From Candidatus Woesebacteria bacterium RBG_13_46_13 (lineage in GTDB: Bacteria > Patescibacteriota > Microgenomatia > UBA8517): a stretch of DNA of 34,456 nucleotides. The stretch covers positions 1-34,456 of the forward strand of contig MGFR01000002.1 of assembly GCA_001791995.1 (NCBI GenBank). Direction: 5' to 3'. Made by a program: the position numbers and the translations under genes. Shown one piece after another: positions 5,748 through 34,449 of the stretch (positions are counted from its first letter, which is position 1; every line of letters starts with the position of its first letter). Below the pieces are notes generated by a model. That model did not search any database. It was not told where the DNA came from and saw only the letters and a list, made by a program, of their open reading frames with translations.

Positions 5748-5792
5748 ATTATACGCTTACCTCTTGTTAGGCGCAAAAAATGCCCATATAAT
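5748..5792. promoter_or_regulatory. Divergent -10 elements (PEGA gene and mreB)
   Basis: TATAAT on minus at 5748-5753, 7 nt before ATG 5740; TATAAT on plus at 5787-5792. Confidence 0.55.
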
Positions 5793-5811
5793 GCGTCCAA
5801 TCCCCTAAACC

Positions 5812-15943: not shown

Positions 15944-15948
15944 AATTA

Positions 15949-16089: not shown

Positions 16090-16709
16090 TGAGCCTTTCT
16101 TATCAATTCTAAATATAGTCTTTCCTCGGATTGAGTGTCAATAAGACTGATTATCTGCGTCAATTCGACAGTGTCGCCGATTCCGATATCTGTAAGCTTA
16201 ATTTGTTTTATTCCATCTGCTGTATTCTGTGTAACTACCACTGCGTTCACATCAGCTGGGGTAAACCTGGTTTTGATTTTTTTGTCGTCTTTGGCTATTT
16301 GGATAAAGTATGCATACTGGGTCTGTTTGGTTTGGTCCTCGGGCCCAAAATCAACTACTTCACCGAAGAGCTTCAACGATACGGATGCGTCCTTGATAAG
16401 CTCCTTCCTTTCCGACAAGGAATTAAACTGTGTTGCGTAATCAAACAATTTCTGCTCGGCGGATCTGGTTTGCGAGGGAGAAGGGGTGTTTGTGGGTATT
16501 GCGACATCTCGGGACTCCTCCTGGGTCGGAGCGGGAGACGGCCTGAGCAATTTAAAGAAGCTGCCCAGGCTTCCATTGGACACGTAATAGACGATCTCGG
16601 CCACAATTACCAGAAAGAATATTCCCAGAACAATAAATAGGATTTTTCTCAGGGGATTTCCGCCTTGGGGCGTTACTATCGCGCTTGTTCCTTGGGCAGG
16701 TCCATCCAT
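16086..16709 (-). CDS. Single-TM membrane-anchored hypothetical protein, copy 1 (directly upstream of the precursors)
   Basis: TM ILFIVLGIFFLVIVAEIVYY, Pro/Thr linker, C-terminal domain homologous to 32305-32916. Start ATG 16709 preferred over 16745. Confidence 0.75.
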   Translation of the reverse strand: MDGPAQGTSAIVTPQGGNPLRKILFIVLGIFFLVIVAEIVYYVSNGSLGSFFKLLRPSPAPTQEESRDVAIPTNTPSPSQTRSAEQKLFDYATQFNSLSERKELIKDASVSLKLFGEVVDFGPEDQTKQTQYAYFIQIAKDDKKIKTRFTPADVNAVVVTQNTADGIKQIKLTDIGIGDTVELTQIISLIDTQSEERLYLELIRKAQ

Positions 16710-16750
16710 TTTTTCAGTATAATAGACAAAGCTATTTAAATGCAATTAAA

Positions 16751-18352
16751 ATGGAAGTAGTGGAAACAGAATCTGAACGTGAGCCTGTCGAGATACTGCC
16801 TTCGAATATTGGAGAGATGAAGCCGGGGGAAGTAGTGCCTATTCTAACCCGTGCAGCTTCCAGAATAGACATCGTCAGACCCAAAAACGATTTTTGGAAC
16901 GGAATGAAGGAAAACCTAAGAGGTGCTGCAGCCTACCTCGAGGCGCAGAAATCCAAAATCGCCTCAAAGACCTTTAGGGTTGTAGCAGGAGCATCTTTGG
17001 TTGCGACAATGGTTTCTGCCTGTGCAAGATCGGTCGAAACCGCAAATATCCCTCCGGAAACTTTACCCATTGCAACCGAGGTATTCCCAACTTCTGAATT
17101 AACTCCCGTGCCGACAGAGATTCCTTCCGCCACTCCCGAGATTGTTCCCACGATCATCGCAGCGCAGTTTGAATATGATTTCGATTCCGAACGGCCGGGG
17201 TACATTCCAGCCGAGCTTGCGGAAACAGGAATAACCGGGGAGGTGGTCTTTAATGAAGCCCGAAGCGCAGGAGGGACAATCGTAACCGAAGTTGCTAAGG
17301 ATGAGGGCTTTGTCCCTCTTGCCGTAGAGGGTGGGATTCTCAGTGCAGAAGGCGGGAGCGCCACTTTTCTTCCGCATCCGGCAGAGATGCTCTACGAGAA
17401 TAGCCAGGGAGTACTCCAAAGTCTACGCTTTTCCCAAGAAGATTCGGGACAGGGATATGCTGCCTATGTTGATGAAAGTGGCATAGTAAAGCTAAGAATG
17501 CTGACCGTTCTCCCCACGCCCCCAGAGGGTGATTACATGGCAGCTGTCAGTTACGACCAGGAAGACAGGGGGGTGGTCTATGCGCTAAGAATGGGAAGCA
17601 CGGGAAGGATAACGGAAAGGACGCCAATCGTGTTTGCGGAGGATGGGCAAATACAAACCGATTTAGTAGACGGAAGATTGAGAATTTTTATCGACGGTCA
17701 AAGAATGCTAATGACAGAGGGAAACTTTGAAACGCCGGAAAGAGGGCTTATCGGTTACCCGATCGATTTAGGCAGGATTCCTGAATTGACTTCCCCGTTA
17801 AGCCCCGAGCAGACGGATAGCATGAGATTTGTCGGTAGCGATGGCAGAGCTTTAGCTTATGGAGTTTTTAATGTCGAAACCTCCGACGGTTGGGGGATTT
17901 GGGAGTTGCACGGCATCTTTAGGGGTGAGATTCCCGCGGAATTGTTCCCCGAAGAATATCAAGCAGGGGTAGACGGCTTCCTTTTTGAGATTCCGACCGA
18001 AAGATGGGACGCGCAAAGCGGCAGGTTTGTAAGAGCCGGTGAGTCGCAGTTTATAATTATTAATTCCTTAAGAGACCCCACTTCCGAGCCTGTGGAAGTA
18101 TATTTTCTGGACGGAAACGATGTTGGCCAAAACCCGCCTGCGAGGATGATTTCCCGCCCCGAAGTTACGGAAACTCTCAGGGGGGTAACCCCCGGATCAT
18201 CCGTCATTATCGGAAAACAATTTATCTACGATCCAACAATGGCGGGCTATAACGATTACGACTCGGCAACAATTCCATTATTGGAAGATGGTGTTCCTAC
18301 GGTTAATACCTATGACGGAATTACGCCCAGCACTCTTTATCTTTCCCGATAA
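16751..18352 (+). CDS. Acidic hypothetical protein, possible lipoprotein with long N-terminal extension
   Basis: Hydrophobic stretch ending in lipobox-like VVAGASLVATMVSAC about 90 aa after ATG 16751, then a Pro/Thr/Glu-rich linker. TATAAT at 16718-16723. Confidence 0.7.
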   Translation: MEVVETESEREPVEILPSNIGEMKPGEVVPILTRAASRIDIVRPKNDFWNGMKENLRGAAAYLEAQKSKIASKTFRVVAGASLVATMVSACARSVETANIPPETLPIATEVFPTSELTPVPTEIPSATPEIVPTIIAAQFEYDFDSERPGYIPAELAETGITGEVVFNEARSAGGTIVTEVAKDEGFVPLAVEGGILSAEGGSATFLPHPAEMLYENSQGVLQSLRFSQEDSGQGYAAYVDESGIVKLRMLTVLPTPPEGDYMAAVSYDQEDRGVVYALRMGSTGRITERTPIVFAEDGQIQTDLVDGRLRIFIDGQRMLMTEGNFETPERGLIGYPIDLGRIPELTSPLSPEQTDSMRFVGSDGRALAYGVFNVETSDGWGIWELHGIFRGEIPAELFPEEYQAGVDGFLFEIPTERWDAQSGRFVRAGESQFIIINSLRDPTSEPVEVYFLDGNDVGQNPPARMISRPEVTETLRGVTPGSSVIIGKQFIYDPTMAGYNDYDSATIPLLEDGVPTVNTYDGITPSTLYLSR

Positions 18353-18384
18353 ATTTGTTATCTTTTGATAAGAAGGATTTACCC

Positions 18385-18996
18385 ATGCCCAAAAAACTTC
18401 TTTTTATACTCCTTTTAGTTAGCTGTGTATTGCTGGCGGCTACGGTAGGCTATATCGTCTACAGACTGAGGCAGGGTGAGATTTCGCGGGAGAATGCCTA
18501 CAAGGGAGGCTTGATTACACAAAAGGAAAATTTGGCCTTAAGCCCCATCGAGAAGTTTTCGAATCCCCAGGGAGCTTTTTATAGAATTAAAGGGAGTTTT
18601 GCAAACGAACTAAAATTGGCTGAAGGCAGGCAAGATAATGCTCTGGCTGGCGAGTTCATTCTTAGGGGAGATACCCTGAAGCGGAAACTTCCGGTCCTTC
18701 TCGGCCTTGGAAACGGCTCTTTTTCTCTGGCAACGTATGACGGTTCATTTGATGGTCAATCTACCTGGGTGCAGGTTAAAACCCAGGACGGGACGGGACA
18801 ACTTATTGCAGGGGAAGAGGTTTTGCTAATGGTAGAATATCTTTTCCCCGGTGTTTCTCAATTGCCGGATTATTTCTTTAAAGAGCAGGACGTTTTCGAC
18901 AGTCTATCCGATGATATCGGCCTGGGGAAATTCAGCTATAATATTCCGAGTGATTTTGTTCTTTATCCGACCGCAGTCGGAATTATTAAAAAATGA
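18385..18996 (+). CDS. Single-TM membrane-anchored hypothetical protein
   Basis: AAGGA then ATG 18385; MPKKLLFILLLVSCVLLAATVGYIVY; stop overlaps the next start. Confidence 0.75.
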   Translation: MPKKLLFILLLVSCVLLAATVGYIVYRLRQGEISRENAYKGGLITQKENLALSPIEKFSNPQGAFYRIKGSFANELKLAEGRQDNALAGEFILRGDTLKRKLPVLLGLGNGSFSLATYDGSFDGQSTWVQVKTQDGTGQLIAGEEVLLMVEYLFPGVSQLPDYFFKEQDVFDSLSDDIGLGKFSYNIPSDFVLYPTAVGIIKK

Positions 18997-20600
18997 AAGC
19001 TCTAAATAAATTTGGGCATTGGCTGTTTTTACTCTTGCCCTTGTTTCTCGTTTTTTCAACAAAAGCTGTCTATGCGCAGATAGAACCTCACCCCGCTTGC
19101 CCTTCGGGACAAGCGTGTTATTTAACCAGGGTAATAAACCAACATACCTGCACTACCTGCCCCAAAGCCTGGTTGTGTACGGGAAATCCCAGCAGGGCTT
19201 GTTACAATGCTCTGCACGGAACAGGAGACAATAGTCTATGTTTAGGTCAAGGGCCGTGTAGGTATATGTGTATACCCGGGCGCGAAAACGAAGGAGGCTG
19301 CGTCGCATTCTCGGCAACCGTTCCCTGCAATACGGCAGGAGTATGCAGAACCACTATTAAATTTACAAGCTGTACATACGACACGGGTAGCGGAGCCTGC
19401 GCCGTAAACCCAGTAGAATACATGGGCTGTTGCGGGCCGGGAAGCGGAACCCCGACAGGAACTGCACCACCTACTCCTACGCCATCCTGTACGGTTGATT
19501 TGCTACCCGCAACTGCTCCCACGTCGGTAGGCAGCGCGGTTACCTTAACGGCATCAGTCACGATAGGGAGCGGGACGGTAGATAGTGTGAATTTTGTCTC
19601 GACCGATACGGGAATAGCAACGGTAAATCCGGCTTCCGATAGTACGGCAGTTTATTCCACGCAGGCAACGGGGGTTGCAAACGGTACAACTACGGTTACC
19701 GCTAATGTGATAATGGGAGGGGCATCAAGGTGTTCCGATACTGCCTCGGTTGAAGTGTTGGCAGCCGGTCCCTGGTGGCAGGTTAGGGATGCGGACGTAA
19801 CCAGCGGGGGGGATGTTGTTTCACCGATTCCGGCAACCTGTAGCTTGCCCGTTTGTGATCCGGTATTAAACCTGCAGGGTACCGGAGGCTTTCCTGGTAT
19901 TGCCTTATATTCCGGTCTAACCGCCGATTTCCAGGCGGGGAGCGGTACGGGGACGGTGGCGGAGGCTCCTTACGGCTGGCTGGTAAATAGCAGCTATTCC
20001 AGCTCCAAGATTTACGATCTTTCCTATTTTCTGCGCCAGATTCCACCCGATGTGACCTTTACCGAAATTGACAGCCCAACCTACAACGGGGGAGATTTTA
20101 ACTCCGGAGGAAGCCCGGCCAGGGGCTATGTCTGGTATCACTATAACGGCGCAACCTTGGGAGACATGACGATTTCAGGAAATGTCAACTTAACCGGCTC
20201 GAGGAAAGTAGTGCTTCTTGTTGAAGGAGCGGATCTTTATATAACCGGCAGGATTAATATCCAATCTTACGGCAGCGGCTATTTTATGGTTGTTGTGGGC
20301 AAAGACGCAAACGGCCTGAAGGGAAATATCATCGTTGACCCGTCGGTTTCTCACCCCACACAGCCTTCGATAGAAGGAGTGTATTTGGCGGAGGGGGAGT
20401 TTAGGACCGGTGCGGGGACCAACCAGCTTCGGGTCAGGGGAGCGGTTGCCGCATATGACGGAATTGTTTTAGAGAGAGATTTGGAAGCGGAGAATGCTGA
20501 TACCCCGGCAGAATATTTCGAATACGCACCAGATATTATCGCCACTTTTCCCCAGGTCTTCACCTCAAGAAGAATGAGGTGGAAAGAAGTAGCCCCATAG
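18993..20600 (+). CDS. Secreted protein: Cys-rich N-domain, Pro/Thr linker, Ig-like (Big_2-like) domain, C-terminal beta-rich domain
   Basis: Signal peptide ending AVYA; Cys-rich first ~150 aa; PTGTAPPTPTP; SVTIGSGTVDSVNFVSTDTGIATV...ATGVANGTTTVTA; PWWQVRDADV C-terminal domain. Confidence 0.8.
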   Translation: MKALNKFGHWLFLLLPLFLVFSTKAVYAQIEPHPACPSGQACYLTRVINQHTCTTCPKAWLCTGNPSRACYNALHGTGDNSLCLGQGPCRYMCIPGRENEGGCVAFSATVPCNTAGVCRTTIKFTSCTYDTGSGACAVNPVEYMGCCGPGSGTPTGTAPPTPTPSCTVDLLPATAPTSVGSAVTLTASVTIGSGTVDSVNFVSTDTGIATVNPASDSTAVYSTQATGVANGTTTVTANVIMGGASRCSDTASVEVLAAGPWWQVRDADVTSGGDVVSPIPATCSLPVCDPVLNLQGTGGFPGIALYSGLTADFQAGSGTGTVAEAPYGWLVNSSYSSSKIYDLSYFLRQIPPDVTFTEIDSPTYNGGDFNSGGSPARGYVWYHYNGATLGDMTISGNVNLTGSRKVVLLVEGADLYITGRINIQSYGSGYFMVVVGKDANGLKGNIIVDPSVSHPTQPSIEGVYLAEGEFRTGAGTNQLRVRGAVAAYDGIVLERDLEAENADTPAEYFEYAPDIIATFPQVFTSRRMRWKEVAP

Positions 20601-20642
20601 AGTTCTGCAGGAGGTTAGAATAACAAAACGAAGAAGGCTACT

Positions 20643-21359
20643 CTATCTGCACTCCATTGTGGTGGTGGTGGTTCCGCTTCCGGTGCAGCTGACGCAGTTT
20701 CCGTATTCGTCGTTATTCCTGGTGGCTGATGCGTAGCCGGCGTTGATGCCGGTTGTTCCGCAGGCCGTACCTTCTCCGCTTGCGTCTATATAATCACAGG
20801 TGACGCTACAGGCACTGCAAACGGGCGAGGTGCAACTCAACCTTCTTTTGGTTGTTGCACTGTCGCAGTTATAGTCATAACTTTCATCGCCTCTATCGTC
20901 CGCATAGTAAGTAGTTTGACCCGGTTTTGCGTTGGCGCTTGAGTCGTAGCAATCTGCGGTGGATAAACTCGTCAGATCGCTTACGCTGCGGCGACCTGCG
21001 GCCGACTCAAAATATTTGGTAGTTGTACTGGCGGGGTACCCATCAGAATCCGCATCCAGCATATAAACCGTTGTTGTACCCGGCTTAAGCGAGGCGCCTG
21101 TGGCGACCACCATTGTTCCACCGGTCAAAAGAAACGAGGTTGCTCCGACGGAGTAGCCGTTAAGAAGGGTTAACGTTCCGCCTGTAGATATTGTGATGGA
21201 GCCGTTTATTCCATCGGTTGTATTAGAAAAAGAGAATGACGTAGACACAACGCAGGAAGAAGTACTAGTCGCGGTGCATTCCGCGGCATCTGCATTTGAG
21301 GCAAAAAGGAAAAAACCGGCAACGAAAAGAATAAATGTGGCAATTTTCTTCATAATCAT
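20643..21359 (-). CDS. Secreted Thr/Cys-rich protein with a putative metal-binding (MopE-like) motif
   Basis: Signal peptide (ADA-AEC); LDADSDGY...DCYDSSANAKPG...DYNCD; Cys-rich C-terminus. Confidence 0.75.
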   Translation of the reverse strand: MIMKKIATFILFVAGFFLFASNADAAECTATSTSSCVVSTSFSFSNTTDGINGSITISTGGTLTLLNGYSVGATSFLLTGGTMVVATGASLKPGTTTVYMLDADSDGYPASTTTKYFESAAGRRSVSDLTSLSTADCYDSSANAKPGQTTYYADDRGDESYDYNCDSATTKRRLSCTSPVCSACSVTCDYIDASGEGTACGTTGINAGYASATRNNDEYGNCVSCTGSGTTTTTMECR

Positions 21360-21895
21360 CTGATCACCATTTCAAACGACGATTTGCCTGTTCCGCTTAC
21401 CCCTTCCAAGATAAGATGGTAATACTCGTCGTAGCCTCCGGAGAACATCCATGAACCTTCCCATCTGCCCTTTAAGTTTGTTCCGTCTACCAAAGAAAAC
21501 TGCACCGACTTGGTTTTATCGTTCATCTTGACGGTTGCGGTGACCGAGGTAATTGGCTTGGTGTCGTTAACCTCTACGCTGAAGGTTTGTTTTTGCAAAA
21601 GCCTGGGGTCGATGGGGTCGATTATCAGCTTGGTCATTTTCGGCCAGGCGTCTTGGCTCATACTTACCCCAAATTCCTGTTTCCCCGTTCCAATGGGGCG
21701 GGGAGTCGGCTTGGGAGTGGGAGTTGGTGTTATACTGACCACTCCGGTCGGGAGTCCGGTTATTTTTCTGACCGGTTCAGGCAGTTGCCCTTGACCCGCA
21801 AAGTATGTATAACCCAAATAGCCTACTGCGGCAACGGCGATGATAATAAAGAAGCTCAACAATAATTTATTTAAAGGGAGTTTTTTGAATTTCAA
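21356..21895 (-). CDS. Single-TM protein with Pro/Thr linker and Ig-like beta domain
   Basis: TM LLLSFFIIIAVAAVGYLGY; ITPTPTPKPTP. Start uncertain: TTG 21895 after AGAGGA, or 21943 in the ORF track. Confidence 0.7.
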   Translation of the reverse strand: MKFKKLPLNKLLLSFFIIIAVAAVGYLGYTYFAGQGQLPEPVRKITGLPTGVVSITPTPTPKPTPRPIGTGKQEFGVSMSQDAWPKMTKLIIDPIDPRLLQKQTFSVEVNDTKPITSVTATVKMNDKTKSVQFSLVDGTNLKGRWEGSWMFSGGYDEYYHLILEGVSGTGKSSFEMVIR

Positions 21896-21949
21896 ATTAT
21901 TATCCTCTACATTATTATTGATACAAATTTTCCGGAAAGTCAATAAAAC

Positions 21950-23257
21950 GTGCTGAAATTAATCAAACAAAATTCCGTCTTGGCGCTTACGCTGTTGGCT
22001 ATTTTTTTGGTTAAAATTCCCCCTTTTTATTTTCTCGGAATCACTAGTACCTTATTAACTAGTCATACGCTGGCCCGCTATCTAATCTTTGCTATTTTCC
22101 TTTTTAGTGCTTGGCAGGTTTTCTTCGGGAAGGGAAAAGCTATCCCGCAGAGCGGGAAAAATCTTATTCTTCTCTTTTTGGCCTATTTTTTCTTCCAGTC
22201 GTTTTCGGTTGTCGGGGCCGAGAGTGTCGAGGCCTTTGCCAGGGTCTATAAAGACATCGTTTTTCCCGGGTTTTTCCTTTTCGTGGTTTTATTCCAAAGC
22301 GGAATTGCCAGGGGTTTGGCCAAGATTTTTGTTGCCGCAGGTATCATCAACTTCTTTTACCAGATGGCGATACTTCTTGTGCCTTCCGCCTTCAGGCTTT
22401 TCGGGGAGCGCTTTATCTATAGCGAACATTTCCAGCTGGTGGATATCAATATCCAAAGAGGCCGGCTTTTTGTCGAAACCTATGACGAGATTGCTATCCC
22501 GGTTTTACTTTTTCTTCTGTTCAAAGAAAAAAGAAGCAAAGTCCGGCTAGGTTACATTTTGGTCCTGACGATGATTATCGTACCCAGCTTACTTTCCAAT
22601 TTCAGAACCAGGTTCTTGATGCTTTTCTTTGCCTTGGCTGCCTCTTTCTTGATAGTTGTTGGGGGGAGGCTTAAGGCCAAGCTGACCCTTATCGGTTCTC
22701 TTTTTGTCCTGGGATTTGTCGCGCACTCCGTTTCGGTTTACTTTTTTGGGTTTTCATTCCTAAACAGACTGGCGCTTGAGGACCCCGGGGAGGATGTCCA
22801 GACCATCCAGTCCAGATTCGCCAACATTAAAGCCTCTCTCGATATGGGACTGGCCCGTCCTTTAAGCGGGGTGGGGCTGAATAATTACTATTTTCATCTG
22901 TCCGAAGGCAGAAAGGGCCTTTTTTCGATTTCCCTTAATCTGGCCAGGCAGCGTGAGGCGGAATTTGCTTCGGTGAATCCCCACAATATCTTTGCCCAGA
23001 TTGTCTCCGAGACCGGATTGGTAAGCCTTGGCCTTTACCTTTTTATCCTGGGGTTTTTTGCCAAAGGCGATATCGGTATCGTCAAAGGCAAGGACGGACT
23101 GAAAAAATCTCTGGCAATTTCTTTCTGGACTCTATTTATATACTCGATTTTTAACCCCACCACCACACTGGCCTATAATTCTCTTTTCTGGATTTTGCGG
23201 GCCGCCCTTACTCAAGACTTACCACTTCGAAGTCCCGGAAATCGAAGTTTGGGGTAG
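21950..23257 (+). CDS. O-antigen ligase/O-oligosaccharyltransferase-like membrane protein, type A copy 2
   Basis: IPPFYF...HTLAR, VETYDEIAIP, SNFRTR, PLSGVGLNNY, NPHNIFAQ..SETG, NPTTTLAYNSLFW; all shared with 8362-9642. Confidence 0.85.
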   Translation: MLKLIKQNSVLALTLLAIFLVKIPPFYFLGITSTLLTSHTLARYLIFAIFLFSAWQVFFGKGKAIPQSGKNLILLFLAYFFFQSFSVVGAESVEAFARVYKDIVFPGFFLFVVLFQSGIARGLAKIFVAAGIINFFYQMAILLVPSAFRLFGERFIYSEHFQLVDINIQRGRLFVETYDEIAIPVLLFLLFKEKRSKVRLGYILVLTMIIVPSLLSNFRTRFLMLFFALAASFLIVVGGRLKAKLTLIGSLFVLGFVAHSVSVYFFGFSFLNRLALEDPGEDVQTIQSRFANIKASLDMGLARPLSGVGLNNYYFHLSEGRKGLFSISLNLARQREAEFASVNPHNIFAQIVSETGLVSLGLYLFILGFFAKGDIGIVKGKDGLKKSLAISFWTLFIYSIFNPTTTLAYNSLFWILRAALTQDLPLRSPGNRSLG

Positions 23258-24011
23258 ACACCGAAAAGGTCGCTCCCGGCCTGACCGCCTTTTCTTCTCC
23301 GAAAAAATAAAATCCGTCTGCGTATTTAAGCTTTATACTCGCCAGAACGGAAATTTCCAGGGTTGAGCCGGTAGGCAGGACCAAATATCTATCTTCACCC
23401 AGAGTTTTTGAGATATTGGAATAACCCAAAACGTTTTTGGAGATGACCTTAAAAACAACCTCTTTTCCGTCCGAAAATTCATCGCCGATATTTATGGCGT
23501 TATACTCCCAGCGGTAAGCCGGAATTTTTCTCAAGAGCACTTTCTTGTCGACATATTTTTCTTCGAAGGGATTCTCGTTCATATCGATGACAGTTCCGGT
23601 AACCAAAGAACGGTTCAGTTCCAGCTCGATGGGTGAGCCGACGGAGAGGGGGGAGTTTTTGAAAGAATATTTTCCGCCCTTTCCGGATGAGGCCAGTTTT
23701 AGAGTCAGATAGATATTGTATTTATCTTCAATGTCGGGATAATATCTGACATCCGTAACTTGAGCAATGGTTCTGCCCAGAAGATCGTGTTCGGAATCAC
23801 CCCTGCTTATCGCTTTGGCGAACCAAAAGGCGGGTTTTTGGGTGGAGGCCCACCATAGTCCCTGGGCGACCTTGACCTTGGCATAAACGAAATTTTCTTT
23901 GGGGGTCAGAATTTTGAGAACGATAAAGGTGGCGGTGATAACCAGAATTCCGAGAAACAAAGTAATGGCAAAAAGGGAAAATCTTTGCTTTTTGTTTTTG
24001 GGTAAGTTCAC
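23208..24011 (-). CDS. Membrane-anchored hypothetical protein (DUF4330-like), copy 2
   Basis: Paralog of 11715-12527; GTG start. Confidence 0.65.
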   Translation of the reverse strand: MNLPKNKKQRFSLFAITLFLGILVITATFIVLKILTPKENFVYAKVKVAQGLWWASTQKPAFWFAKAISRGDSEHDLLGRTIAQVTDVRYYPDIEDKYNIYLTLKLASSGKGGKYSFKNSPLSVGSPIELELNRSLVTGTVIDMNENPFEEKYVDKKVLLRKIPAYRWEYNAINIGDEFSDGKEVVFKVISKNVLGYSNISKTLGEDRYLVLPTGSTLEISVLASIKLKYADGFYFFGEEKAVRPGATFSVSTPNFDFRDFEVVSLE

Positions 24012-24047: not shown

Positions 24048-26147
24048 ATGCAAACTAACATTTTCGAGAGATTCTTGGCCGTGGTTCTTTTAATTCTTTC
24101 TTTGCCGCTACTTGGCCTCTTTTGGATTTTGATGCTGTTGGAGGACAAAGGACCTTTGTTCTTTCGTCAGAAAAGACTGGGCAAGGGCAAGACCCCCTTT
24201 GTCATTTACAAAGTCAGGACCATGGTAGTCGGGGCGGATAAACTGCAGAAAAAATATCGGGGGTTAAACGAGGCCGATACTCCGGTTTTTAAGATATATA
24301 ACGACCCGAGATATACCAGACTGGGGAAGTTTCTGGCCCATACGGGCTTAGATGAGTTGCCCCAGCTAATCAATATTATTAAAGGGGAGATGAAGTTTGT
24401 CGGTCCCCGGCCGCTACCGGATTACGAAGCGGTAAAGGTGCCCCAAAAATATCAAAAGCGCTTTTCGGTCTACCCAGGAATTACTTCGCTCTGGATTGTT
24501 CAGGGGGCCCATAACCTCTCATTTAAGCGCTGGATGGAATTGGATTTACAGGAAGTGGAGAATGGTAGTTTTTGGCTGTCATTAACTATCGCCTGGGGAA
24601 CAATGCGCATAATTGTCTCTTCGCTAATTAGGAAATTACAGAAATATTTCCCGGCGGTTCTGCTTCTTTTGGTTATTTCTCTCGGTTTGGCTCTGCGGAT
24701 TGATCAGGTGGTTGGGAAAACCCTCTGGGGGGATGAGGTGCTGTATTTTTCGACCGCAGACACAACTTTATTCGCCAATCTGTTTTTGCAGCGCTACGGG
24801 ATTGTTGATAACCCGCCTTTCTTTTTGATTTTCCTGAAAGCCTGGAGTTATATTTCGAAAGATATATTTTGGTTAAGAATACCCGGCTTAATAATCTTCT
24901 TGTTCTCGGCCAAGGTTCTTCTTTCCCTGTTTAAAAAAACGGGTAACGTGACAAAACTGATAGTTGTTTCCATATTCTCCCTGTCCACCTTTTTTCTCAG
25001 AATAAACTCCTGGATATCTCCTTATAACTTTGTTTTGCTTTTCAGCGTCCTACAGCTGTATCTCTTAATGAATTTCCTGGAAGGCAGGTATTTAAAAAAT
25101 CGCGGCTTTTTTATTCTGTCGTTTTCTTTGCTGAATCTTTTTCTTTTTGCCACGCATTACTCTTCGGTTTATGTTTTCGTGGGGTATTTGCCGATTTTAA
25201 TCTGGACCCTCTGGACAGACAAAAAACTTTTTCGGACATTTGCCTTATCCCTCATACTTTCCGGGTTATTAATGTTCCCCGTATTTTGTCTCTTGCTGGC
25301 AAGGCATAAAAGTATTGTCGGTATTGTTTATAACAATTCGCTGGCTTTAGAAACAAACGTTCTCGGGGCCTATTCATATATCCTGGACAGGTCGGTTCTT
25401 AGAATTAGGAATTGGTCCGTATCGACCACCTCCTTCATTTTGGTTTCGGCCCTGGCCATAGTTCCCTGGATTGCTAACAAGAAACTGCGAAGAGAGTACA
25501 TGCTTCTTCTTTTTTCGTTTTCTTTCTACATCCTGCCGGTTACGCTCTTTTATTTTCTGACCCAACCGGTTGCGGGGGCGAGAATTGAAAGAACTTTTCT
25601 GGTATTCCACCTCGGTTTGTACTTTTTGTTGGCCCAAGCCTTGGAGGTAACTAGAAAAACAAACAAACTACTTTTTGCCCTTTCAGCTTGTTCTTTGCTG
25701 GGTTTGTTTGCCGTTTCTTATCTTGCCCCGCCAAAGGGAATTTTTTATCTGCCCGGGAACGTAACGAATTTTAGGCTGGAGACCAAAGAATACGATATTT
25801 TCTTGAAAGCTCTTGGAGAAAAACTTGAGCAGGGTAATTACGATAGCGTTGTCTTTTTAGAGAAAAACATAGGCTATATCCAGCAGAAACAGATATTTTT
25901 GAAATACTATTTTATACACGATATGCATTTTAAGTTTGCCAGAGAAAAATATATTCCCTACCAAAATTTATGGGAGGTGCATAGCGGGGATTTAATTATC
26001 CCCGAAGATGTGAGAAACTCTCTTGGGAAAAATGTTCTATTGGTAAATTTTGAAGAAAAACTGGATAGGGCGATCGTTTTAAAACAACTAGCGGGAAAGA
26101 TATTAGAAACATTTGATTACTGGAAATATTTTTCAAACAGACCATGA
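24048..26147 (+). CDS. Fusion of a monotopic phosphoglycosyl transferase (PglC/WcaJ-type sugar transferase) and a GT-C (PMT/ArnT-like) multi-TM glycosyltransferase
   Basis: aa 1-190: FFRQKRLG, YKVRTM, DPRYTRLGKFL...LDELPQLINIIKGEM..VGPRP, PGIT. From ~aa 200: TM, LWGDE, DNPPFF, ~11 further TMs. Single uninterrupted 699-aa frame. Confidence 0.85.
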   Translation: MQTNIFERFLAVVLLILSLPLLGLFWILMLLEDKGPLFFRQKRLGKGKTPFVIYKVRTMVVGADKLQKKYRGLNEADTPVFKIYNDPRYTRLGKFLAHTGLDELPQLINIIKGEMKFVGPRPLPDYEAVKVPQKYQKRFSVYPGITSLWIVQGAHNLSFKRWMELDLQEVENGSFWLSLTIAWGTMRIIVSSLIRKLQKYFPAVLLLLVISLGLALRIDQVVGKTLWGDEVLYFSTADTTLFANLFLQRYGIVDNPPFFLIFLKAWSYISKDIFWLRIPGLIIFLFSAKVLLSLFKKTGNVTKLIVVSIFSLSTFFLRINSWISPYNFVLLFSVLQLYLLMNFLEGRYLKNRGFFILSFSLLNLFLFATHYSSVYVFVGYLPILIWTLWTDKKLFRTFALSLILSGLLMFPVFCLLLARHKSIVGIVYNNSLALETNVLGAYSYILDRSVLRIRNWSVSTTSFILVSALAIVPWIANKKLRREYMLLLFSFSFYILPVTLFYFLTQPVAGARIERTFLVFHLGLYFLLAQALEVTRKTNKLLFALSACSLLGLFAVSYLAPPKGIFYLPGNVTNFRLETKEYDIFLKALGEKLEQGNYDSVVFLEKNIGYIQQKQIFLKYYFIHDMHFKFAREKYIPYQNLWEVHSGDLIIPEDVRNSLGKNVLLVNFEEKLDRAIVLKQLAGKILETFDYWKYFSNRP

Positions 26148-28926: not shown

Positions 28927-29864
28927 TTAAGAAAATCTTCAGCAATTATCCTGTGTCCATTCTCGTTGGGATGGGGATCTCCGGAAAAATGCAGCTCCCG
29001 ATATTCGGTTGGGTTAGTTAGCCCCCGGAAATCGTAAGTGTTGGGCCTTCCGGCGACGAATGAACCCACAATGTCATCGTAATAGGGTTCTACCGGCAGA
29101 AAGGATGCGATAATCAGGGGATTTGTGTAGACGGAATCAAAATCGGAAAGAATCTTCTTTTGTTTTTCTACGATTGATTCCTCGGGATATTTATCAATGT
29201 ACTGGGAATAAGCCTTATGCCAGGAGGCGTAATAATCGCCTTCCTCCACCGCTTTTTGGAATTCTCCGTTTTTTCTCATCTCGGCGTCGACATTTTTTTC
29301 CAAGGGCAAAATAAGCTCGTTAATCTGCAGCATATCATCGCTTTTGACAAACCAGATGACAACGTCCGGTTGATACTTTGCCCCCCTGAGTTCAAACCTT
29401 TTGGCCGCATACTGGAGATCGTAACCCCAGACCCCAAGATTTATGACCTCATACTTTTTCACCGCACTGCAGGTTTTTTCTTTGTTAAGTAAGTCTTCAA
29501 GGGTTTCCGGCCAATTATTGTCGGTATCTACATAAAGTCCGTAAGTCCAGGAATCGCCAAGGGTTATTATTCTAAATATCCCGGGGTCTTTCTCCGTTTT
29601 GTAATCGTATCTTTCATTTAGACTGTCGGAATTGATAGTAGAAATTCCCTGGTAGGGAATCCACGTGTTTGCTTTGTCCAGGCTATTGGGACTCGGTTCG
29701 TAAAAATAATCCAAACCCTTGGTTTTGGTCGAAAGAACAGATTCCTTACTAATCAAGCTTAAGAATATCTTGGGTAATGATTTTTTATAAATCGAAAATA
29801 CCAAAAAAGCGATAATAAGAAGCTGTGATAAGACGATAAAGGCGATGAGTTTTGACTTTCCCAT
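28890..29864 (-). CDS. Membrane-anchored SGNH/GDSL hydrolase-fold protein
   Basis: N-terminal TM; LGDSWTYG, NLGVWGY, DPHPNENGH. Confidence 0.85.
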   Translation of the reverse strand: MGKSKLIAFIVLSQLLIIAFLVFSIYKKSLPKIFLSLISKESVLSTKTKGLDYFYEPSPNSLDKANTWIPYQGISTINSDSLNERYDYKTEKDPGIFRIITLGDSWTYGLYVDTDNNWPETLEDLLNKEKTCSAVKKYEVINLGVWGYDLQYAAKRFELRGAKYQPDVVIWFVKSDDMLQINELILPLEKNVDAEMRKNGEFQKAVEEGDYYASWHKAYSQYIDKYPEESIVEKQKKILSDFDSVYTNPLIIASFLPVEPYYDDIVGSFVAGRPNTYDFRGLTNPTEYRELHFSGDPHPNENGHRIIAEDFLNYLVAKDFLPCK

Positions 29865-29871
29865 TTTGGGA

Positions 29872-29909
29872 ATTATAGCACGGCAGCTTTTTCGCGATTA
29901 TTCTATACT
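29872..29909. promoter_or_regulatory. Divergent -10 elements, both positioned for leaderless or near-leaderless mRNA
   Basis: Minus: TG-C-TATAAT (TATAAT at 29872-29877), 7 nt before ATG 29864. Plus: TATACT at 29904-29909, 6 nt before ATG 29916. Confidence 0.55.
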
Positions 29910-29915
29910 GATAAT

Positions 29916-30980
29916 ATGAAAAAGTTGTTACCGGTGTTTATTTTGGGGGTATTGCTCATACTTGGCAGCTTGGGAAAAAATTCCGTCTCGTTTTTGCTTG
30001 CCCAACTTTCATTAATTTCCGTTTTGTTTTTTTGGACTCTTTTTACAAGAGAAGCGAAATCTCCTCCGGGATTTATCCTTTATCTAATTTTTCTCGGAAT
30101 TGTTGTTTGGAAATTCATTTCCGGCTCCCGAGACGGCGGTGCGGATTATCTGTATCTTTTTGCAGGTGGGGGACTATTATGGTTTTCCGCATTTAATCAG
30201 AAAGAAAAGTGGGGAGGTTATTTGGAAAAATTGATTCTTGTTTTCGGTCTGGCTATGGCCGCCCTCTATGTTCTCTGGCTAATCTTTTCTCCCGGCCTTA
30301 TCCTGCCGCAGAGCCTTTTTACTTTCTCCTCCGCCTTTAAAAACCATAACCACATAGGAGACTTGTGGGCGATTGTGCTGTTGGTTGTCGCTCGTAAGCT
30401 TGTAGCCAAAGGCGGCCTCTATTATTGGTTGCTTGCCGTTCTGGGACTTATCCTGATGTACCTTTCCTTTTCCCGCTCGGCGGTAGTTGCTTTCCTTGCG
30501 GGAGCAATTTATCTGTTCGGAAACATCGATTATCTCAAGAGGAATAAATACATTTTCACCTTTTTGTCTTTGGGGATAACGGCGGTTTTTCTTCTAACCA
30601 GTATCAACAAATCGATATTTTTCTCAAGACCTTATTTTACTCAGGCCATTTCCGGACTAAGCAAATATCCTTCCGGGGTGGGAATGGGCAACTTCAAACT
30701 CGTCTCCTCGCGTTTTGATGTGGGAACTTTTTCCAGCATTGTCCACAATCTGGTCTTGGAGGTAATGGTGGGGTTGGGCTGGATTGGCGTAGTATTTGTT
30801 GTTTGGCTGGGGAATGTTCTTTGGCAGGGAGTGGTTGGGGCAAAGAATAGAATAGCCTACGCCGTATTTTTAGGGCTTACTGTTAATTTCCTTTTCGATT
30901 CGACCTATCTTATTCCCTCGATGGTCTGGCTTTGGTTTTTGAGTCTGGGTTTAAGCCGTGGGCAGCATAATCTTCGCTGA
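29916..30980 (+). CDS. O-antigen ligase-like membrane protein, type B copy 2
   Basis: KNHNHIGDLW, SFSRSA, SRPYF, GVGMGNF, VHNLVLE, DSTYLIPSMVWLWF; all shared with 12563-13639. Confidence 0.82.
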   Translation: MKKLLPVFILGVLLILGSLGKNSVSFLLAQLSLISVLFFWTLFTREAKSPPGFILYLIFLGIVVWKFISGSRDGGADYLYLFAGGGLLWFSAFNQKEKWGGYLEKLILVFGLAMAALYVLWLIFSPGLILPQSLFTFSSAFKNHNHIGDLWAIVLLVVARKLVAKGGLYYWLLAVLGLILMYLSFSRSAVVAFLAGAIYLFGNIDYLKRNKYIFTFLSLGITAVFLLTSINKSIFFSRPYFTQAISGLSKYPSGVGMGNFKLVSSRFDVGTFSSIVHNLVLEVMVGLGWIGVVFVVWLGNVLWQGVVGAKNRIAYAVFLGLTVNFLFDSTYLIPSMVWLWFLSLGLSRGQHNLR

Positions 30981-32169
30981 TTAACCCCTTTCTTTTCTGA
31001 TTCCGGGTTTTGATAAAAGAGCCAATAGCCAGAGGTATGAAACGCAGCGTTTTGGGAGACAACAACAACCTTAGCTTCAGGGACAAACCTGCGGGAGACA
31101 AAAGAAATACCAGCAGCAATCTTTTGACTCCCTGGAAAACCCTGTTGCCTGTGGAAAACGGGGAAATAAAAAGGGAGAGAAGATAAAGGGCATAGTCCTT
31201 TTTTCGGTTGGGAAAGGCCAGATCAAGATATTTTTCGGAAAGGATTAGGCCCAGATGCACGGGGCTGGGAACTCCGTACTTTTTGGAAAGCCTGAAAAGC
31301 CTTTTCCAGTCAAGACCCGACTCGGTCATTTTTTTTACCAACTCGATTCTAGATAGACCCTCGTAGTTGTGTCTATACCAATGCAGCAGAAGGTAAATGA
31401 CGAAAGTTTCTTTGTCCAGAATCTTAAACCTAGCCGACCCTTGCTTTACCGAGATGGAATTGGTGAAGAGGCTTTGTTCAAATTCCTTCACTTTCGGAAA
31501 CAGGCTGTTAAGATAGGTAAGCTTGGTGAAAGGGATTCCCAGACCTCTGTGTAAATCTACCCTAACGGGGAAAGGAAAAATATTTTTGGTAAGGGTAACC
31601 TCGGAGGCGTTTGTAAATTCCTTTGCGAAAAGGGTAGCGGGGGATTTTGTAAAACCCAAAGGGCTTAAGACCCGAATAACCTTTTTAAAGTCATCCTCGC
31701 GGACGAAAATATCACAATCGGCCAAAAGTCTGTTGGGGGGGGATTTTGCCCAGTGGAGGTAAGGAACAATTCCCCGCAGAACGATAAATTTTATCTTTGC
31801 CCTTTTAAGCGATTTTTCTACCTTTACCAGTTGGGATAGGTAAAAAGAGGATTGGGTATAGTAAAGATGCTCGAGGGCAATACGGGTGGAGCCCCTTTTT
31901 ATGGCGATAACCTTTCCGAGAATCTCGCCAAGGGCTATTTTCTTGTCCGGAAGTAAATTGTTGTCTCCTTTGGTGATGAAGTTTTTTCTGTCCGGGAAAG
32001 TGTAAACAATCCTGTGGGCGATGAGTTTGCCGGAGGCTAAGTAGGCTACGATATTGCCAGTGGAACAATCCTTTTGGTCTTCTATCTCCACCTTGTCTCC
32101 AGGCAAAAAAAGGGGGAACATACTCAGGTTTTGGGAAGTGTTTTTTAGCTGGCGCAGGGGCACTTTCAA
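30910..32169 (-). CDS. S26 peptidase-nucleotidyltransferase fusion, copy 2
   Basis: LSMFP...IVAY...AHRI...ITKGDNN...ILGKV; IVLRG...NRLLADCDIFV...VDLHR...LLLHWYRH. TTG start overlaps the P3 stop (TTGA). Confidence 0.83.
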   Translation of the reverse strand: MKVPLRQLKNTSQNLSMFPLFLPGDKVEIEDQKDCSTGNIVAYLASGKLIAHRIVYTFPDRKNFITKGDNNLLPDKKIALGEILGKVIAIKRGSTRIALEHLYYTQSSFYLSQLVKVEKSLKRAKIKFIVLRGIVPYLHWAKSPPNRLLADCDIFVREDDFKKVIRVLSPLGFTKSPATLFAKEFTNASEVTLTKNIFPFPVRVDLHRGLGIPFTKLTYLNSLFPKVKEFEQSLFTNSISVKQGSARFKILDKETFVIYLLLHWYRHNYEGLSRIELVKKMTESGLDWKRLFRLSKKYGVPSPVHLGLILSEKYLDLAFPNRKKDYALYLLSLFISPFSTGNRVFQGVKRLLLVFLLSPAGLSLKLRLLLSPKTLRFIPLAIGSFIKTRNQKRKGLISEDYAAHGLNPDSKTKARPSRE

Positions 32170-32303
32170 CTTACGACACCGGCCAAAAGGAGAGATTCGG
32201 TATCGGCGCTGTTTCTAAGGGAGTTTCTTGAATAAAACTGAACCGTTTTAATTTTTGAACTTCTGAGCACTGGCTTGGAGTAAACTTTTTTAGCTTTGAC
32301 CAT
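32166..32303 (-). CDS. Putative RiPP-like precursor peptide P3 (45 aa)
   Basis: MVKAKKVYSKPVLRSSKIKTVQFYSRNSLRNSADTESLLLAGVVS*; exact YxxPxL motif; 1 nt after the upstream stop. Confidence 0.85.
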   Translation of the reverse strand: MVKAKKVYSKPVLRSSKIKTVQFYSRNSLRNSADTESLLLAGVVS

Positions 32304-32304
32304 T

Positions 32305-32916
32305 TCAGAAATGCTCCCTCTTAATCTCTAAATTTATAGTATCACCTGCATACGTATCAAGCAAGTTGCTTGAAGTTTTTATGACCACATAGTCCGACTC
32401 CTGAAGGTCTTTTATGGTTGCGTCCTTGGATTCACCCCCCCAGGTCACAATTTTTACTTCCATAATATCCAGCTCCTGTTGGGTAAACCTGTATCTTAAT
32501 ATGGCTCCTTTTTCGTCCTGTAATCCCAGATGGTACACATATTTAACCCTGTCGATTTCCACAATTTCGGGGATCGCTATGGCGGCCAATCCTTGGGCGA
32601 CCGTGGTATATTTAAGCTCCCTGTAAAAGGCGCCGCTCTGTTTGTCGGGAGTCATCCTGTCCAGAAATTTTCTGATTGCGGCCACCCTTTCTTCGTTAAG
32701 AGGTTTGGGAGCCAGGTCTTCAACCCCCAATGGCTGGTACTCTTGGCAGCCCAGAAGGCTGCATTTCTGGAAAGGATTTTTATAAAGGTAGACAGCCTCT
32801 GCCGCAACCGCAGTAACAAGAAGTACAAACAGGCTAAGAAGAACTAATATCAAAACCTTTGACCCCCGCGGCTTCCCTTGGGGTTGTGGTGTCTGGACGG
32901 CAGGTTCTAAATCCAT
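32305..32916 (-). CDS. Single-TM membrane-anchored hypothetical protein, copy 2 (directly upstream of P3)
   Basis: TM ending VAAEAVYLY; C-terminus YVYHLGL..RYRFTQQEL..V..IKDLQESDYV..LLDT..LEIKR aligns with 16086-16709. Confidence 0.75.
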   Translation of the reverse strand: MDLEPAVQTPQPQGKPRGSKVLILVLLSLFVLLVTAVAAEAVYLYKNPFQKCSLLGCQEYQPLGVEDLAPKPLNEERVAAIRKFLDRMTPDKQSGAFYRELKYTTVAQGLAAIAIPEIVEIDRVKYVYHLGLQDEKGAILRYRFTQQELDIMEVKIVTWGGESKDATIKDLQESDYVVIKTSSNLLDTYAGDTINLEIKREHF

Positions 32917-32970
32917 TGTTTCCCGGCAATAATTATCTTAACAACAGGCGTAAGCTAAGACAAGTTCTAT

Positions 32971-34449
32971 TCACTGGTAGTTTGGAACATCGGCCGTACC
33001 TTTTACGGCATCGACAAAGATACATTTCTTGTCTTTGCATAAGTTGAGATATTGATAAAGCCTACCCCCTTCCAGGTTTCTGGAGAGCAGGACAAAATAC
33101 AGGGTATCGACCTGCCCGATATCTTTGGCAACAGACTCTTCTTGAATACCGAATTTATTATCGATTATGACAAAGCGGTGTTCCAAACACCCGGAACCCA
33201 GCCAAAAAGGGGATTTCGGAGATAAATCGTAGGCAGACCTGTAATAATACGCCAGGGGATAGAAATTAAAGTCGGCAGAGTTAACCACAAATAGCGTGTC
33301 GGGTTTGCAGTTTGTAACCAAAAAGTTTCTGATTTCGGAATTGGTAACGACTTGGTTTGGATTGTTATTTTTGTTGCCGAAATACCCCGATTGGAATACG
33401 TTTTGTGTTACAAGCAGGATAAAGAGGAGGGCCAAGAGTACCGACTTGCGTTTTGCGTCTTGAAACCAAAAAAGGAAGATAATCAAAAGCGAAATTGCGG
33501 AAAAGTTGAACAGGTTAGATGTGAAATGATATCCGAATTTTTTCAAAAAGCCAACGACGAGGATGTTTGAGAGAACCGTGAGGCCCACGAAAAGCCGGCT
33601 CTCGGGAAGAGCCGTCTTTCGAATCAAACCCCTTAAGGTAAAAAGCAGGGCCCAGATATCCAGTAAAAAAAGGCCTTTCAGGACGGTACCCAGGCGTTGG
33701 TTATAAAAAAATTGATATCCGGTCGATATTTCCCAGAAGTTTTCCCCTCTGATTCCGAAATTCGGAGTGAGCGTGCCGAAAAGGGAAAAATTTTTAAACA
33801 AAAGAAATACGATAGGAATAGAGAATAGAACAGTAAGGGCAAGAGCCCTCATCCCCGAACGGAAGTGTTCTTTATTTATCCAAAATGCTATTACTATGAA
33901 TAAAAACAGGCTAAAAATATAAAGAGCGGAGGTGTAGCTTGCGTATAAGGATAATGAGGCAAAAAGCGAGACCAGAAAAATATTTCTCTTGCCGCCTTCC
34001 CTAAAGGATTTTAGAAGGAAATAAAAAGAGACGATTTGGAGAAACAACGCCATGGGGTAGGGTTTAGCTTCCCAACCTGTGCGGACAAAGAAGGCGGATA
34101 TGGAAAATAGTGCGGGAAGAAGAAGGTTGTTTACCTTACGCAAGATAAGCGAAGAGATTTTATAAAGGGCCGCGATTGTTCCCAACCCGAAGATAAAATT
34201 AACCAGTCTTAAGGCCAGAAGAGTCGGAGAGGCGATAAGTATAAATCTTTGGAACATGGTAAAGAATGGGGGGTTGTCCTTTATCCAATAGTCTCCGACG
34301 ATCAGTTCACGAAACCTGTATTGCAGGGCGGCAAGGAAATAATTCACTTCATCCGAGGTAATTTCCTTATGGAATAGCAAATACAGTCTCAAAAAAATTC
34401 CTGCAAAGATGAGTATCCAAAGAAGGGTGGAGAATAATACCTTTCTCAT
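32971..34449 (-). CDS. GT-C (PMT/ArnT-like) multi-TM glycosyltransferase
   Basis: TM, then ITSDEVNY, DNPPFF, WEAKPY, many TMs. Paralog of the C-terminal part of 24048-26147. Confidence 0.82.
   Translation of the reverse strand: MRKVLFSTLLWILIFAGIFLRLYLLFHKEITSDEVNYFLAALQYRFRELIVGDYWIKDNPPFFTMFQRFILIASPTLLALRLVNFIFGLGTIAALYKISSLILRKVNNLLLPALFSISAFFVRTGWEAKPYPMALFLQIVSFYFLLKSFREGGKRNIFLVSLFASLSLYASYTSALYIFSLFLFIVIAFWINKEHFRSGMRALALTVLFSIPIVFLLFKNFSLFGTLTPNFGIRGENFWEISTGYQFFYNQRLGTVLKGLFLLDIWALLFTLRGLIRKTALPESRLFVGLTVLSNILVVGFLKKFGYHFTSNLFNFSAISLLIIFLFWFQDAKRKSVLLALLFILLVTQNVFQSGYFGNKNNNPNQVVTNSEIRNFLVTNCKPDTLFVVNSADFNFYPLAYYYRSAYDLSPKSPFWLGSGCLEHRFVIIDNKFGIQEESVAKDIGQVDTLYFVLLSRNLEGGRLYQYLNLCKDKKCIFVDAVKGTADVPNYQ

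Follow-up and report, generated by a model that had tools for sequence, protein, structure and literature searches.

The peptide system predicted on contig MGFR01000002.1 of Candidatus Woesebacteria bacterium RBG_13_46_13 (positions 1 to 34,456, the whole stretch analyzed here, hereafter the window) has its closest described counterpart in the linear polyphosphorylated peptides (LPPs), a family of RiPPs (peptides made by ribosomes and modified after their translation) known from the lpp cluster of Paenibacillus alginolyticus DSM5050 (Popov et al., Nat Commun 2026, PMC13381572). The core of that pathway comprises LppS, a signal peptidase I (SpI) of archaeal type, the RiPP recognition element (RRE) LppB, the HprK-like kinase LppK, the NTP transferase LppN, whose domain is listed as NTP_transf_5 in a supplement table, and the MsbA-like exporter LppD. 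LPP clusters lie within capsule loci and encode one to three precursors with the motif YxxPxVLxHQxIxFETxxS. Ser3 of the core peptide is polyphosphorylated by LppK; cleavage by LppS after T-1 requires LppB, the unphosphorylated precursor is cut poorly, and mutations of S29, H68 or D93 of LppS abolish cleavage. The family was described as restricted to Bacillota, with a few candidate-phylum peptidases, one of them a Microgenomates ABC-ATPase-peptidase fusion beside an RRE, listed in the supplement outside the main cluster (all from PMC13381572).

A second point of comparison is provided by the lasso-peptide clusters for paeninodin and pseudomycoidin, in which an HprK-like kinase targets the C-terminal Ser of the precursor before processing. 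PsmN, a nucleotidyltransferase (NTase) of the PF14907 type with a catalytic DxD motif (D134/D136), attaches a hexose to the phospho-Ser (PMC6993621). In lasso clusters, NTases of this type are sometimes fused to the B2 peptidase.

Our analysis of the window revealed two copies of a peptide module, cassette 1 (14639-16745) and cassette 2 (30910-32916), the second of which has neither an RRE nor a kinase gene of its own. We consider it probable that cassette 2 is an anciently duplicated LPP-type module of Patescibacteria that uses the PqqD-type RRE and the kinase of cassette 1. Judged by gene content and sequence motifs, the whole system is an undescribed patescibacterial variant of the LPP family, so that the LPP enzyme set is now seen in ultra-small Patescibacteria, beyond Bacillota. 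The literature yielded one unrelated paper on PF14907 and nothing specific on Patescibacteria or the candidate phyla radiation in connection with RREs; the TMcin preprint concerns an unrelated system.

Gene order of the two cassettes

Cassette 2 consists of TM2 (a transmembrane, TM, protein), the precursor P3 and the peptidase-NTase fusion 2, a three-gene operon on the minus strand, and is the second copy of a four-gene module that includes the convergent ligB2 (Table 1). The TM2 stop codon and the P3 ATG are 1 nt apart (position 32304), and in the TTGA at 32166-32169 the stop TGA of P3 overlaps the TTG start of fusion 2. The 3' ends of the fusion 2 and ligB2 genes share 71 nt (30910-30980); therefore, there is no space for a PqqD or kinase gene between them. 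The listing of open reading frames (ORFs) and direct reading of the sequence thus confirmed what the first-pass annotation had described: the order TM protein, precursor and S26-NTase repeated 16 kb away with these same junctions, convergence on a type B ligase-like gene, a missing kinase-PqqD pair, and a YSKPVL motif in P3. The ligase-like gene could be refined to the Pfam Wzy_C family, weakly for copy 2 (ligB2 scores 19.7 bits, under the 31.7 cut-off; ligB1 scores 35 bits, over it). The S26-NTase label also proved correct: the N-terminus of fusion 2 matched the archaeal-type signal peptidase I model TIGR02228 (E 1.7e-10; fusion 1, E 1.1e-11), and the remainder matched Pfam PF14907, NTP_transf_5 (E 1.9e-16; fusion 1, E 7.4e-24).

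Promoter-like sites in 29700-33200 were as frequent as in shuffled sequence. Terminator-like sites in the same interval were about twice the shuffled mean, and none lay on the minus strand within TM2-P3-fusion 2. TM2 has no Pfam or NCBIfam match. In its AlphaFold 2 (AF2) model a disordered linker joins an N-terminal TM helix (aa 18-46) to a C-terminal beta-barrel domain (aa ~102-200), with a pLDDT of 67.9 overall and about 90 within the beta-barrel; against PDB folds the model gave nothing better than E 0.03, with weak OB-like matches only. The C-terminal tail of fusion 2, EDxAxHxLNPxSKTK, is conserved within its clade and disordered in the model (pLDDT < 50). On the opposite strand the same DNA encodes the VWLWF motif conserved in the ligase, and the overlap itself is therefore the probable reason why the tail is conserved.

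Table 1. Coordinates of the peptide-system features in the window and of the start regions of fusion-2 genes in related loci
Feature	Position	Strand	Description
TM2	32305-32916	-	203 aa, single-pass membrane protein (ORF listing)
P3 precursor MVKAKKVYSKPVLRSSKIKTVQFYSRNSLRNSADTESLLLAGVVS	32166-32303	-	45 aa; family hidden Markov model (HMM) E 7e-16
Fusion 2	30910-32169	-	LppS-like serine peptidase + LppN-like NTP_transf_5; 419 aa, TTG start
Fusion 2, peptidase domain	31876-32130	-	aa ~14-98; Ser16, His52, Asp69 (GDNN), Asp75
Fusion 2, NTP_transf_5 (PF14907) domain	31225-31845	-	aa 109-315; Gly133, Asp151-x-Asp153
ligB2	29916-30980	+	354 aa, polytopic, Wzy_C-like (O-antigen ligase/polymerase family), convergent with fusion 2
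ligB1	12563-13639	+	358 aa, ligB2 paralogue; first gene of ligB1-kinase-PqqD operon
HprK-like (ScmC family) kinase	13594-14427	+	277 aa, P-loop SGGGKTT
PqqD-type RRE	14424-14681	+	PF05402 E 3.7e-11
Fusion 1	14639-15805	-	Paralogous peptidase-NTase fusion, convergent with PqqD
P2 precursor	15806-15943	-	Cassette 1
P1 precursor	15949-16089	-	Cassette 1
TM1	16086-16745	-	TM2 paralogue
Bac_transf-domain protein	24048-26147	+	Polyprenyl-phosphate sugar-phosphate transferase
Miscalled start of fusion 2, window	32119-32169	-	
Miscalled start, L001	9950-10010		
Miscalled start, L101	5950-6000		
Miscalled start, L165	1230-1270		
Miscalled start, L168	1415-1460		
Miscalled start, L169	1536-1580		

Family HMMs built from related loci (L numbers below) were run on the whole 34-kb window and found two fusions, two TM proteins, two type B ligase-like proteins, three precursors, one PqqD and one kinase. 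The recurrence of the cassette is far beyond chance, as the paired sequences indicate: in pairwise BLASTP, fusion 1 and fusion 2 share 34% identity (E 1e-60), ligB1 and ligB2 36% (E 5e-56), and TM1 and TM2 25% (E 0.004), each of the latter two matching the family HMM at E <= 1e-50. By the same sequence measures the paralogues of cassettes 1 and 2 are the products of an old duplication. In a neighbour-joining tree, the fusion-2 clade (window, L172, L165, L001, L168 and L169; 46-61% identity) was separate from the fusion-1 clade (window, L170, L171 and L086), with 33-39% identity between the clades.

RRE, kinase and precursor peptides

The PqqD protein, single in the window by HMM, gave weak matches to lasso PqqD models. 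The kinase, likewise single, is assigned to PF27840 (ScmC) in precomputed annotations of the identical protein P0012 and of most homologues; no match was obtained against a local Pfam copy. Both a lasso-type YxxP leader motif and a PqqD-type RRE are thus present in the window. Along P3 itself, the YxxPxL leader motif is succeeded by F23-Y24-S25, then Ser28, an ExxLLA motif and, at the C-terminus, Ser; the RRE-binding motif Y-x-x-P-x-[I/L] has the same spacing in P3 as in P1 and P2. Orthologues of P3 were found in six other contigs; they are conserved throughout, with G-V-x-S as the C-terminal end in nearly all.

Twenty-six family peptides were aligned on YxxP, with positions counted from the Y. 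The Y itself and the P at +3 are invariant (26/26), and I or L at +5 (24/26), K or R at +9 (24/26) and I, V or L at +10 (25/26) are nearly so. Then come F, L or Y at +15 (23/26), Y, L or F at +16 (20/26) and G or S at +17 (15/26); the commonest residue at +20 is S (11/26). An acidic-x-x-L-L-A-like motif follows further downstream at a variable distance from YxxP; short peptides have 3-6 more residues behind it, those of L008, L010, L088 and L091 a long Cys-rich stretch. The last residue is Ser in 11/26 peptides and Cys in 6/26. The longer precursors, 55-79 aa with the same leader, in these other Patescibacteria loci (L008 6827-7045 and 10144-10338; L010 7676-7879; L088 8805-9035; L091 12441-12629), suggest a sub-class with disulfide- or thioether-rich products.

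In species genomes, full-length fusions come mainly from metagenome-assembled genomes of Patescibacteria, Microgenomates, Gottesmanbacteria and Levybacteria (L005-L008 and L010), the exception being L009, labelled uncultured Gammaproteobacteria; matches in other phyla, including Bacillota, span the peptidase domain only. Metagenome and exact-protein look-ups added about 30 further loci. A profile search of 1.84 billion representatives returned 224 fusion-family proteins at E <= 1e-30, these representatives being clusters at the 50% identity level, and almost all of the best 150 of the 224 matched as one stretch across both domains. Relatives usually have genes for TM protein, peptide and fusion in this order, facing a convergent set of PqqD and kinase genes that often also includes Bac_transf and a ligB-type Wzy_C gene.

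The layout of cassette 2 is kept in at least six lineages. All fusion-2 orthologues are accompanied by a TM2-type protein (family HMM: L001, L085, L165-L169 and L172) and a P3-type peptide, and converge on a ligB2-type gene; none is adjoined by PqqD or kinase. In two loci the ligB2-type gene is fused to Bac_transf (L001 11175-12884, L168 2632-4320; PF02397 E 3e-49, Wzy_C E 4e-11). Two of the related sequences provide enough context to judge the distribution of the RRE and kinase, L001 and the 33.9-kb contig of which L171 and L172 are two views, and each has exactly one PqqD-kinase pair, 8-14 kb from cassette 2. On the 33.9-kb contig both cassettes are present, 13.6 kb apart and in the same relative order as in the window. 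The cassette-1 equivalent of L001 comprises a TM1-type gene, a peptide gene whose stop overlaps the PqqD stop, and the convergent PqqD, kinase and ligB1 genes, without fusion 1; the sole fusion within the 21 kb seen is of type 2.

Service of the distant cassette 2 in trans by one RRE and one kinase, all as predicted from sequence, is supported by these data. The first-pass proposal that a single RRE and a single kinase serve all three precursors is, as far as sharing in trans is concerned, the reading with the best support, by way of comparison, through the shared motif, the conserved layout and the single pair. It is very unlikely that cassette 2 has a dedicated RRE and kinase outside the window and shares nothing. 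The view is limited to 34 kb, and some related loci (L008, L090 and L091) do hold two PqqD and two kinase genes; however, the contig of L171/L172 and the 21-kb view of L001 each contain two cassettes and a single pair, and second pairs, where found, are located near peptides, not remote from them.

It is also unlikely that cassette 2 is autonomous, with fusion 2 processing P3 directly in a branch that needs neither RRE nor phosphorylation. Such autonomy would agree with the absence of PqqD and kinase genes next to every fusion-2 orthologue, and with the clade's own active-site context (N-[YLF]-S-M versus G-x-S-M), in which only about 15 residues precede the Ser; LppS touches its RRE via a helix of about 28 residues at that position (PMC13381572). 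Moreover, pseudomycoidin is reported to be obtainable without leader and leader peptidase (PMC6993621). On the other hand, YxxPx[I/L] is kept at unchanged spacing in P3 and all its orthologues, and this invariance would stay unexplained without an RRE. The PqqD-kinase pair lies within 8-16 kb in every contig long enough to judge, the N-terminus of fusion 1 is even shorter, yet fusion 1 neighbours PqqD, and no cleavage was obtained with LppS alone (PMC13381572).

Returning to the predicted sharing in trans, it is possible that each fusion is specific to its adjacent peptide, as the first-pass annotation had also suggested. In favour of this, the paralogy of fusions 1 and 2 is ancient, and each is inherited together with a peptide, a TM protein and a ligase of its own type. 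The cassette-1 peptide of L001, however, adjoins PqqD, kinase and ligase without fusion 1, and therefore one enzyme of the fusion-2 type may serve both peptides.

Integrity of fusion 2

Several lines of comparison, by sequence and by model, indicate that fusion 2 is non-degenerate, with catalytic residues and folds intact. First, LppS (WP_029196374.1, sequence taken from the supplement of PMC13381572) is 27% identical to fusion 2 (BLASTP E 1e-9) and 32% identical to fusion 1 (E 4e-11), and S16, H52 and D75 of fusion 2 align with S29, H68 and D93 of LppS. A profile of the fusion family also matched the catalytic subunits of human SEC11A and SEC11C in PDB (E 1e-5). Second, His52, Asp69, Asp75, Gly133, Asp151 and Asp153 are all invariant in alignment A1, and most of about 35 family members retain G/N-x-S-M-x-P, H-R-[IV], K-G-D-N-N, [KR]-G and D-x-D-[IV]. 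Third, the AF2 model of fusion 2 (pLDDT 81.9, pTM 0.83) has two halves that resemble nucleotidyltransferases (MenT, LnuA and ANT(2'')-Ia) and peptidases of the LexA/SipA type; ANT(2'')-Ia was reported as a structural neighbour of PsmN too (PMC6993621). The model contains no TM helix before the catalytic Ser. An RRE hidden inside fusion 2 was considered and rejected, as the region past the NTase core is all-helical in the model and fusions 1 and 2 share their architecture.

The public gene call for fusion 2 (P0001, 403 aa) begins at the ATG at 32121 and cuts off Ser16, whose codon is 32122-32124 on the minus strand. The same applies to the public calls of the clade as a whole (P0001-P0008), which begin at the Met right behind the putative nucleophile Ser; such enzymes would therefore look dead in automated surveys. 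The in-frame codon before the miscalled ATG encodes Ser in all six cases (window, L001, L101, L165, L168 and L169), and the context N-[YLF]-S-M is kept in the orthologues although the nearby DNA diverges. Upstream starts are available as TTG or GTG in the window, GTG in L165 and CTG in L001 and L101, and in the latter two the CTG overlaps the precursor TGA (CTGA) in the same geometry as the TTGA of the window. True starts of fusion-2 genes thus appear to be TTG, GTG or CTG codons overlapping the precursor stop, and the overlap points to termination-reinitiation coupling with a non-AUG start. A programmed frameshift from P3 into fusion 2 was rejected, since the two reading frames are related differently in the window and in L001, the geometry of the N-TGA overlap being the same.

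The first-pass annotation had pointed to LSMFP and VLRG (copy 1 has GTSMAP and LLKG) as possible marks of degeneration. Both turned out to be clade signatures, N-[YLF]-S-M and [IV]-L-R-G, conserved among fusion-2 orthologues. Apart from these substitutions, the view of cassette 2 as a decaying duplicate with an inactive fusion and a relic peptide could draw on the public gene calls beginning past the catalytic Ser. It is extremely improbable, as orthologues at 46-61% identity are full-length with all catalytic residues, the model is confident over both domains, P3 orthologues are conserved end to end, and the Ser codon is retained 5' of the miscalled ATG. Compared with the 98%-identical L085, fusion 2 of the window shows 5 synonymous and 6 non-synonymous codon changes and P3 shows 0 and 1, too few for a selection test.

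Genomic setting, predicted pathway and comparison with described systems

The remainder of the window is an envelope-glycan locus with genes for MreB, WecG, two more Wzy_C proteins, glycosyltransferases GT1, GT2 and GT4, Bac_transf, a carbamoyltransferase, a GDSL hydrolase and PMT_2. In all, four genes of the Wzy_C family are found within 34 kb (8362-9642, 12563-13639, 21950-23257 and 29916-30980), in two size classes of about 430 aa ("A") and about 355 aa ("B"), and the peptide cassettes pair with class B only. The Bac_transf protein is inferred to belong to the peptide system: Bac_transf genes adjoin or are fused with kinase, PqqD or ligB genes in most related loci (including L002, L005, L010, L090, L091, L095, L099, L102 and L103), and in many other loci Bac_transf stands directly behind the kinase or PqqD gene.

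Six ORFs between the cassettes (16685-21943 and 23208-24011; 555, 213, 535, 238, 195 and 267 aa) have no Pfam match; ORFs of like size, also without Pfam match, occupy the same positions in L170 and L171. A small MerR-type helix-turn-helix protein (8113-8331, plus strand), encoded just 5' of the glycan genes and kept in L170 and L171, is a candidate regulator of the locus. Scans with Rfam and for tRNAs found in the window only a tandem tRNA-Pro(cgg) and tRNA-Arg(cct) (4393-4543, minus strand), remote from cassette 2. L170 is the closest syntenic relative, with a 75% identical kinase; it has a radical SAM gene (4522-5934) where the window has a Wzy_C "A" gene, and an inserted BrnT/CopG-type toxin-antitoxin pair (17089-17638) that separates the cassette-1 region from the next Wzy_C gene. 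In L001 (5443-9097) and L172 (3709-8014), the TM2 orthologue is divergently flanked by genes for 7TM_transglut, ATPgrasp_ST, a RimK-like ATP-grasp protein and a methyltransferase, which look like another predicted peptide-modification set and adjoin rplK-rplA-rplJ-rplL. On that side the window has a PMT_2 glycosyltransferase gene (32971-34449).

The following pathway is proposed for cassette 2. The leader of P3 (Y8-x-x-P11-x-L13) would be bound by the single PqqD encoded 16 kb away, and the single HprK/ScmC-like kinase would then phosphorylate a Ser of P3. Ser28 is favoured because, by analogy with LPPs, it lies three residues past the likely cleavage site; Ser45 is an alternative, since paeninodin and pseudomycoidin kinases target a C-terminal Ser. 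The Ser16/His52/Asp75 domain of fusion 2 would remove the leader, preferably after F23-Y24-S25, as only that motif holds a fixed distance to the YxxP motif, kept in all 26 family peptides; a cut after ExxLLA is the alternative, because the sequence turns hypervariable behind it. The fused NTP_transf_5 domain (Asp151-x-Asp153) could decorate the phosphopeptide further, by analogy with PsmN, and the fact that peptidase and NTase are fused speaks for one bound substrate undergoing both leader cleavage and the NTase step. Finally, TM2 and ligB2 might handle the product at the membrane, which is speculative. The two-cassette split with one RRE-kinase pair makes the locus a natural test case of one RRE acting with several precursors and two paralogous enzymes.

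The near-obligatory linkage with Wzy_C and Bac_transf suggests a step that involves a sugar phosphate or a lipid-linked glycan; the silence of LppN in a heterologous host could be explained in this way. A further idea, to which we give little credence, is that the peptides are acceptors or carriers for envelope glycan assembly, not diffusible RiPPs, and that the Wzy_C-like protein joins a lipid-linked glycan to the processed peptide. The kinase and the fused NTase may make a phospho-(sugar/nucleotide) handle on the Ser, with the TM/beta-barrel protein as an escort. If this were true, the two cassettes would yield two peptide-glycan conjugates from one shared RRE-kinase pair, and the so far inactive LppN/PF14907 family would gain a function.

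Several observations weigh against the reading of cassette 2 as an LPP-type module served by the PqqD and kinase of cassette 1. The census of a single PqqD and kinase extends over no more than 34 kb of genome sequence. The window PqqD has no BLASTP similarity to LppB, and both it and the kinase gave chance-level matches against PDB sequences, LppB (PDB 9x8z) not being recovered. LppN, the counterpart of the NTase domain, showed no activity in a heterologous host (PMC13381572). Among the precursors, Ser at +20 is present in just 11/26 peptides, ExxLLA with its variable tail suits a later cleavage site equally well, the Y-to-F distance is 15 residues versus 13 in LPPs, and neither HQ nor ET is present. 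Moreover, the window has no MsbA-like exporter; no ABC transporter domain was found with Pfam among about 34 larger window ORFs, or in the Pfam tables of related contigs.

Among the described systems, the Sec11/SipW (S26B) housekeeping signal peptidases share with fusion 2 the fold and the motifs S-M-x-P, H-R-[IV] and G-D-N-N followed by D. The fusion 2 peptidase differs in having no membrane anchor, in being fused to a cytoplasmic nucleotide-using enzyme, in its translational coupling to a 45-aa substrate gene, and in its scores (41 bits versus the TIGR02228 equivalog cut-off of 51.85, and 18 versus 190 for the SipW model). HPr-rel-A/SynChlorMet systems, which are TIGRFAM/NCBIfam genome-context families, likewise pair an HprK-related P-loop kinase with a small PqqD-family protein, and the window kinase is assigned to PF27840 (ScmC), but the window proteins score far below the cut-offs of their models (TIGR04352, 12.4 versus 200 bits; TIGR04353, 20.4 versus 35; TIGR04248, 17 versus 100), and radical SAM partners are absent.

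With paeninodin and pseudomycoidin the window shares the C-terminal Ser of P3, an HprK-like kinase and a PF14907-type enzyme with DxD. The YxxP leader, PqqD RRE, HprK-like kinase and NTP_transf_5 domain are all typical of paeninodin-type clusters, which would be expected of a lasso cluster whose cyclase is encoded elsewhere. This interpretation seems hardly credible: no Asn-synthase-like cyclase, transglutaminase-like protease or B2 cysteine protease was found in the window or in the Pfam tables of the annotated related contigs L001-L004 and L165-L172, and the enzyme assigned to leader removal is, as in LPPs, a serine peptidase. The NTase is joined to a serine signal-peptidase-like domain instead of B2, and the product, unlike a lasso peptide, is presumably linear.

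The agreement with the LPP pathway is broader. In both there is a Ser/His/Asp leader peptidase of the archaeal/SipW type (27-32% identity to LppS), a discrete RRE (PqqD in the window), an HprK-like kinase, an NTP transferase (PF14907 in the window), no macrolactam cyclase, and one to three YxxP precursors per locus, in a setting of polysaccharide biosynthesis genes. The precursors also share the aromatic-x-small / x-x-Ser pattern, the distance of 5 from F23 to S28 in P3 being that of FETxxS in the LPP logo. The differences lie in the host (Patescibacteria/Microgenomates versus Bacillota), in the fusion of peptidase and NTP transferase into one polypeptide, and in the TM/beta-barrel protein that always stands ahead of the precursor in the window family. 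Here Wzy_C and Bac_transf are tightly linked or fused to the system, whereas Wzy_C is found near 6/126 LPP peptidases, and the short precursors, which usually have Ser or Cys as their last residue, show conservation from end to end. Finally, the window divides the module between two cassettes that have a single RRE-kinase pair between them; cassette 2 has no RRE or kinase of its own and would rely on the single copies in cassette 1.

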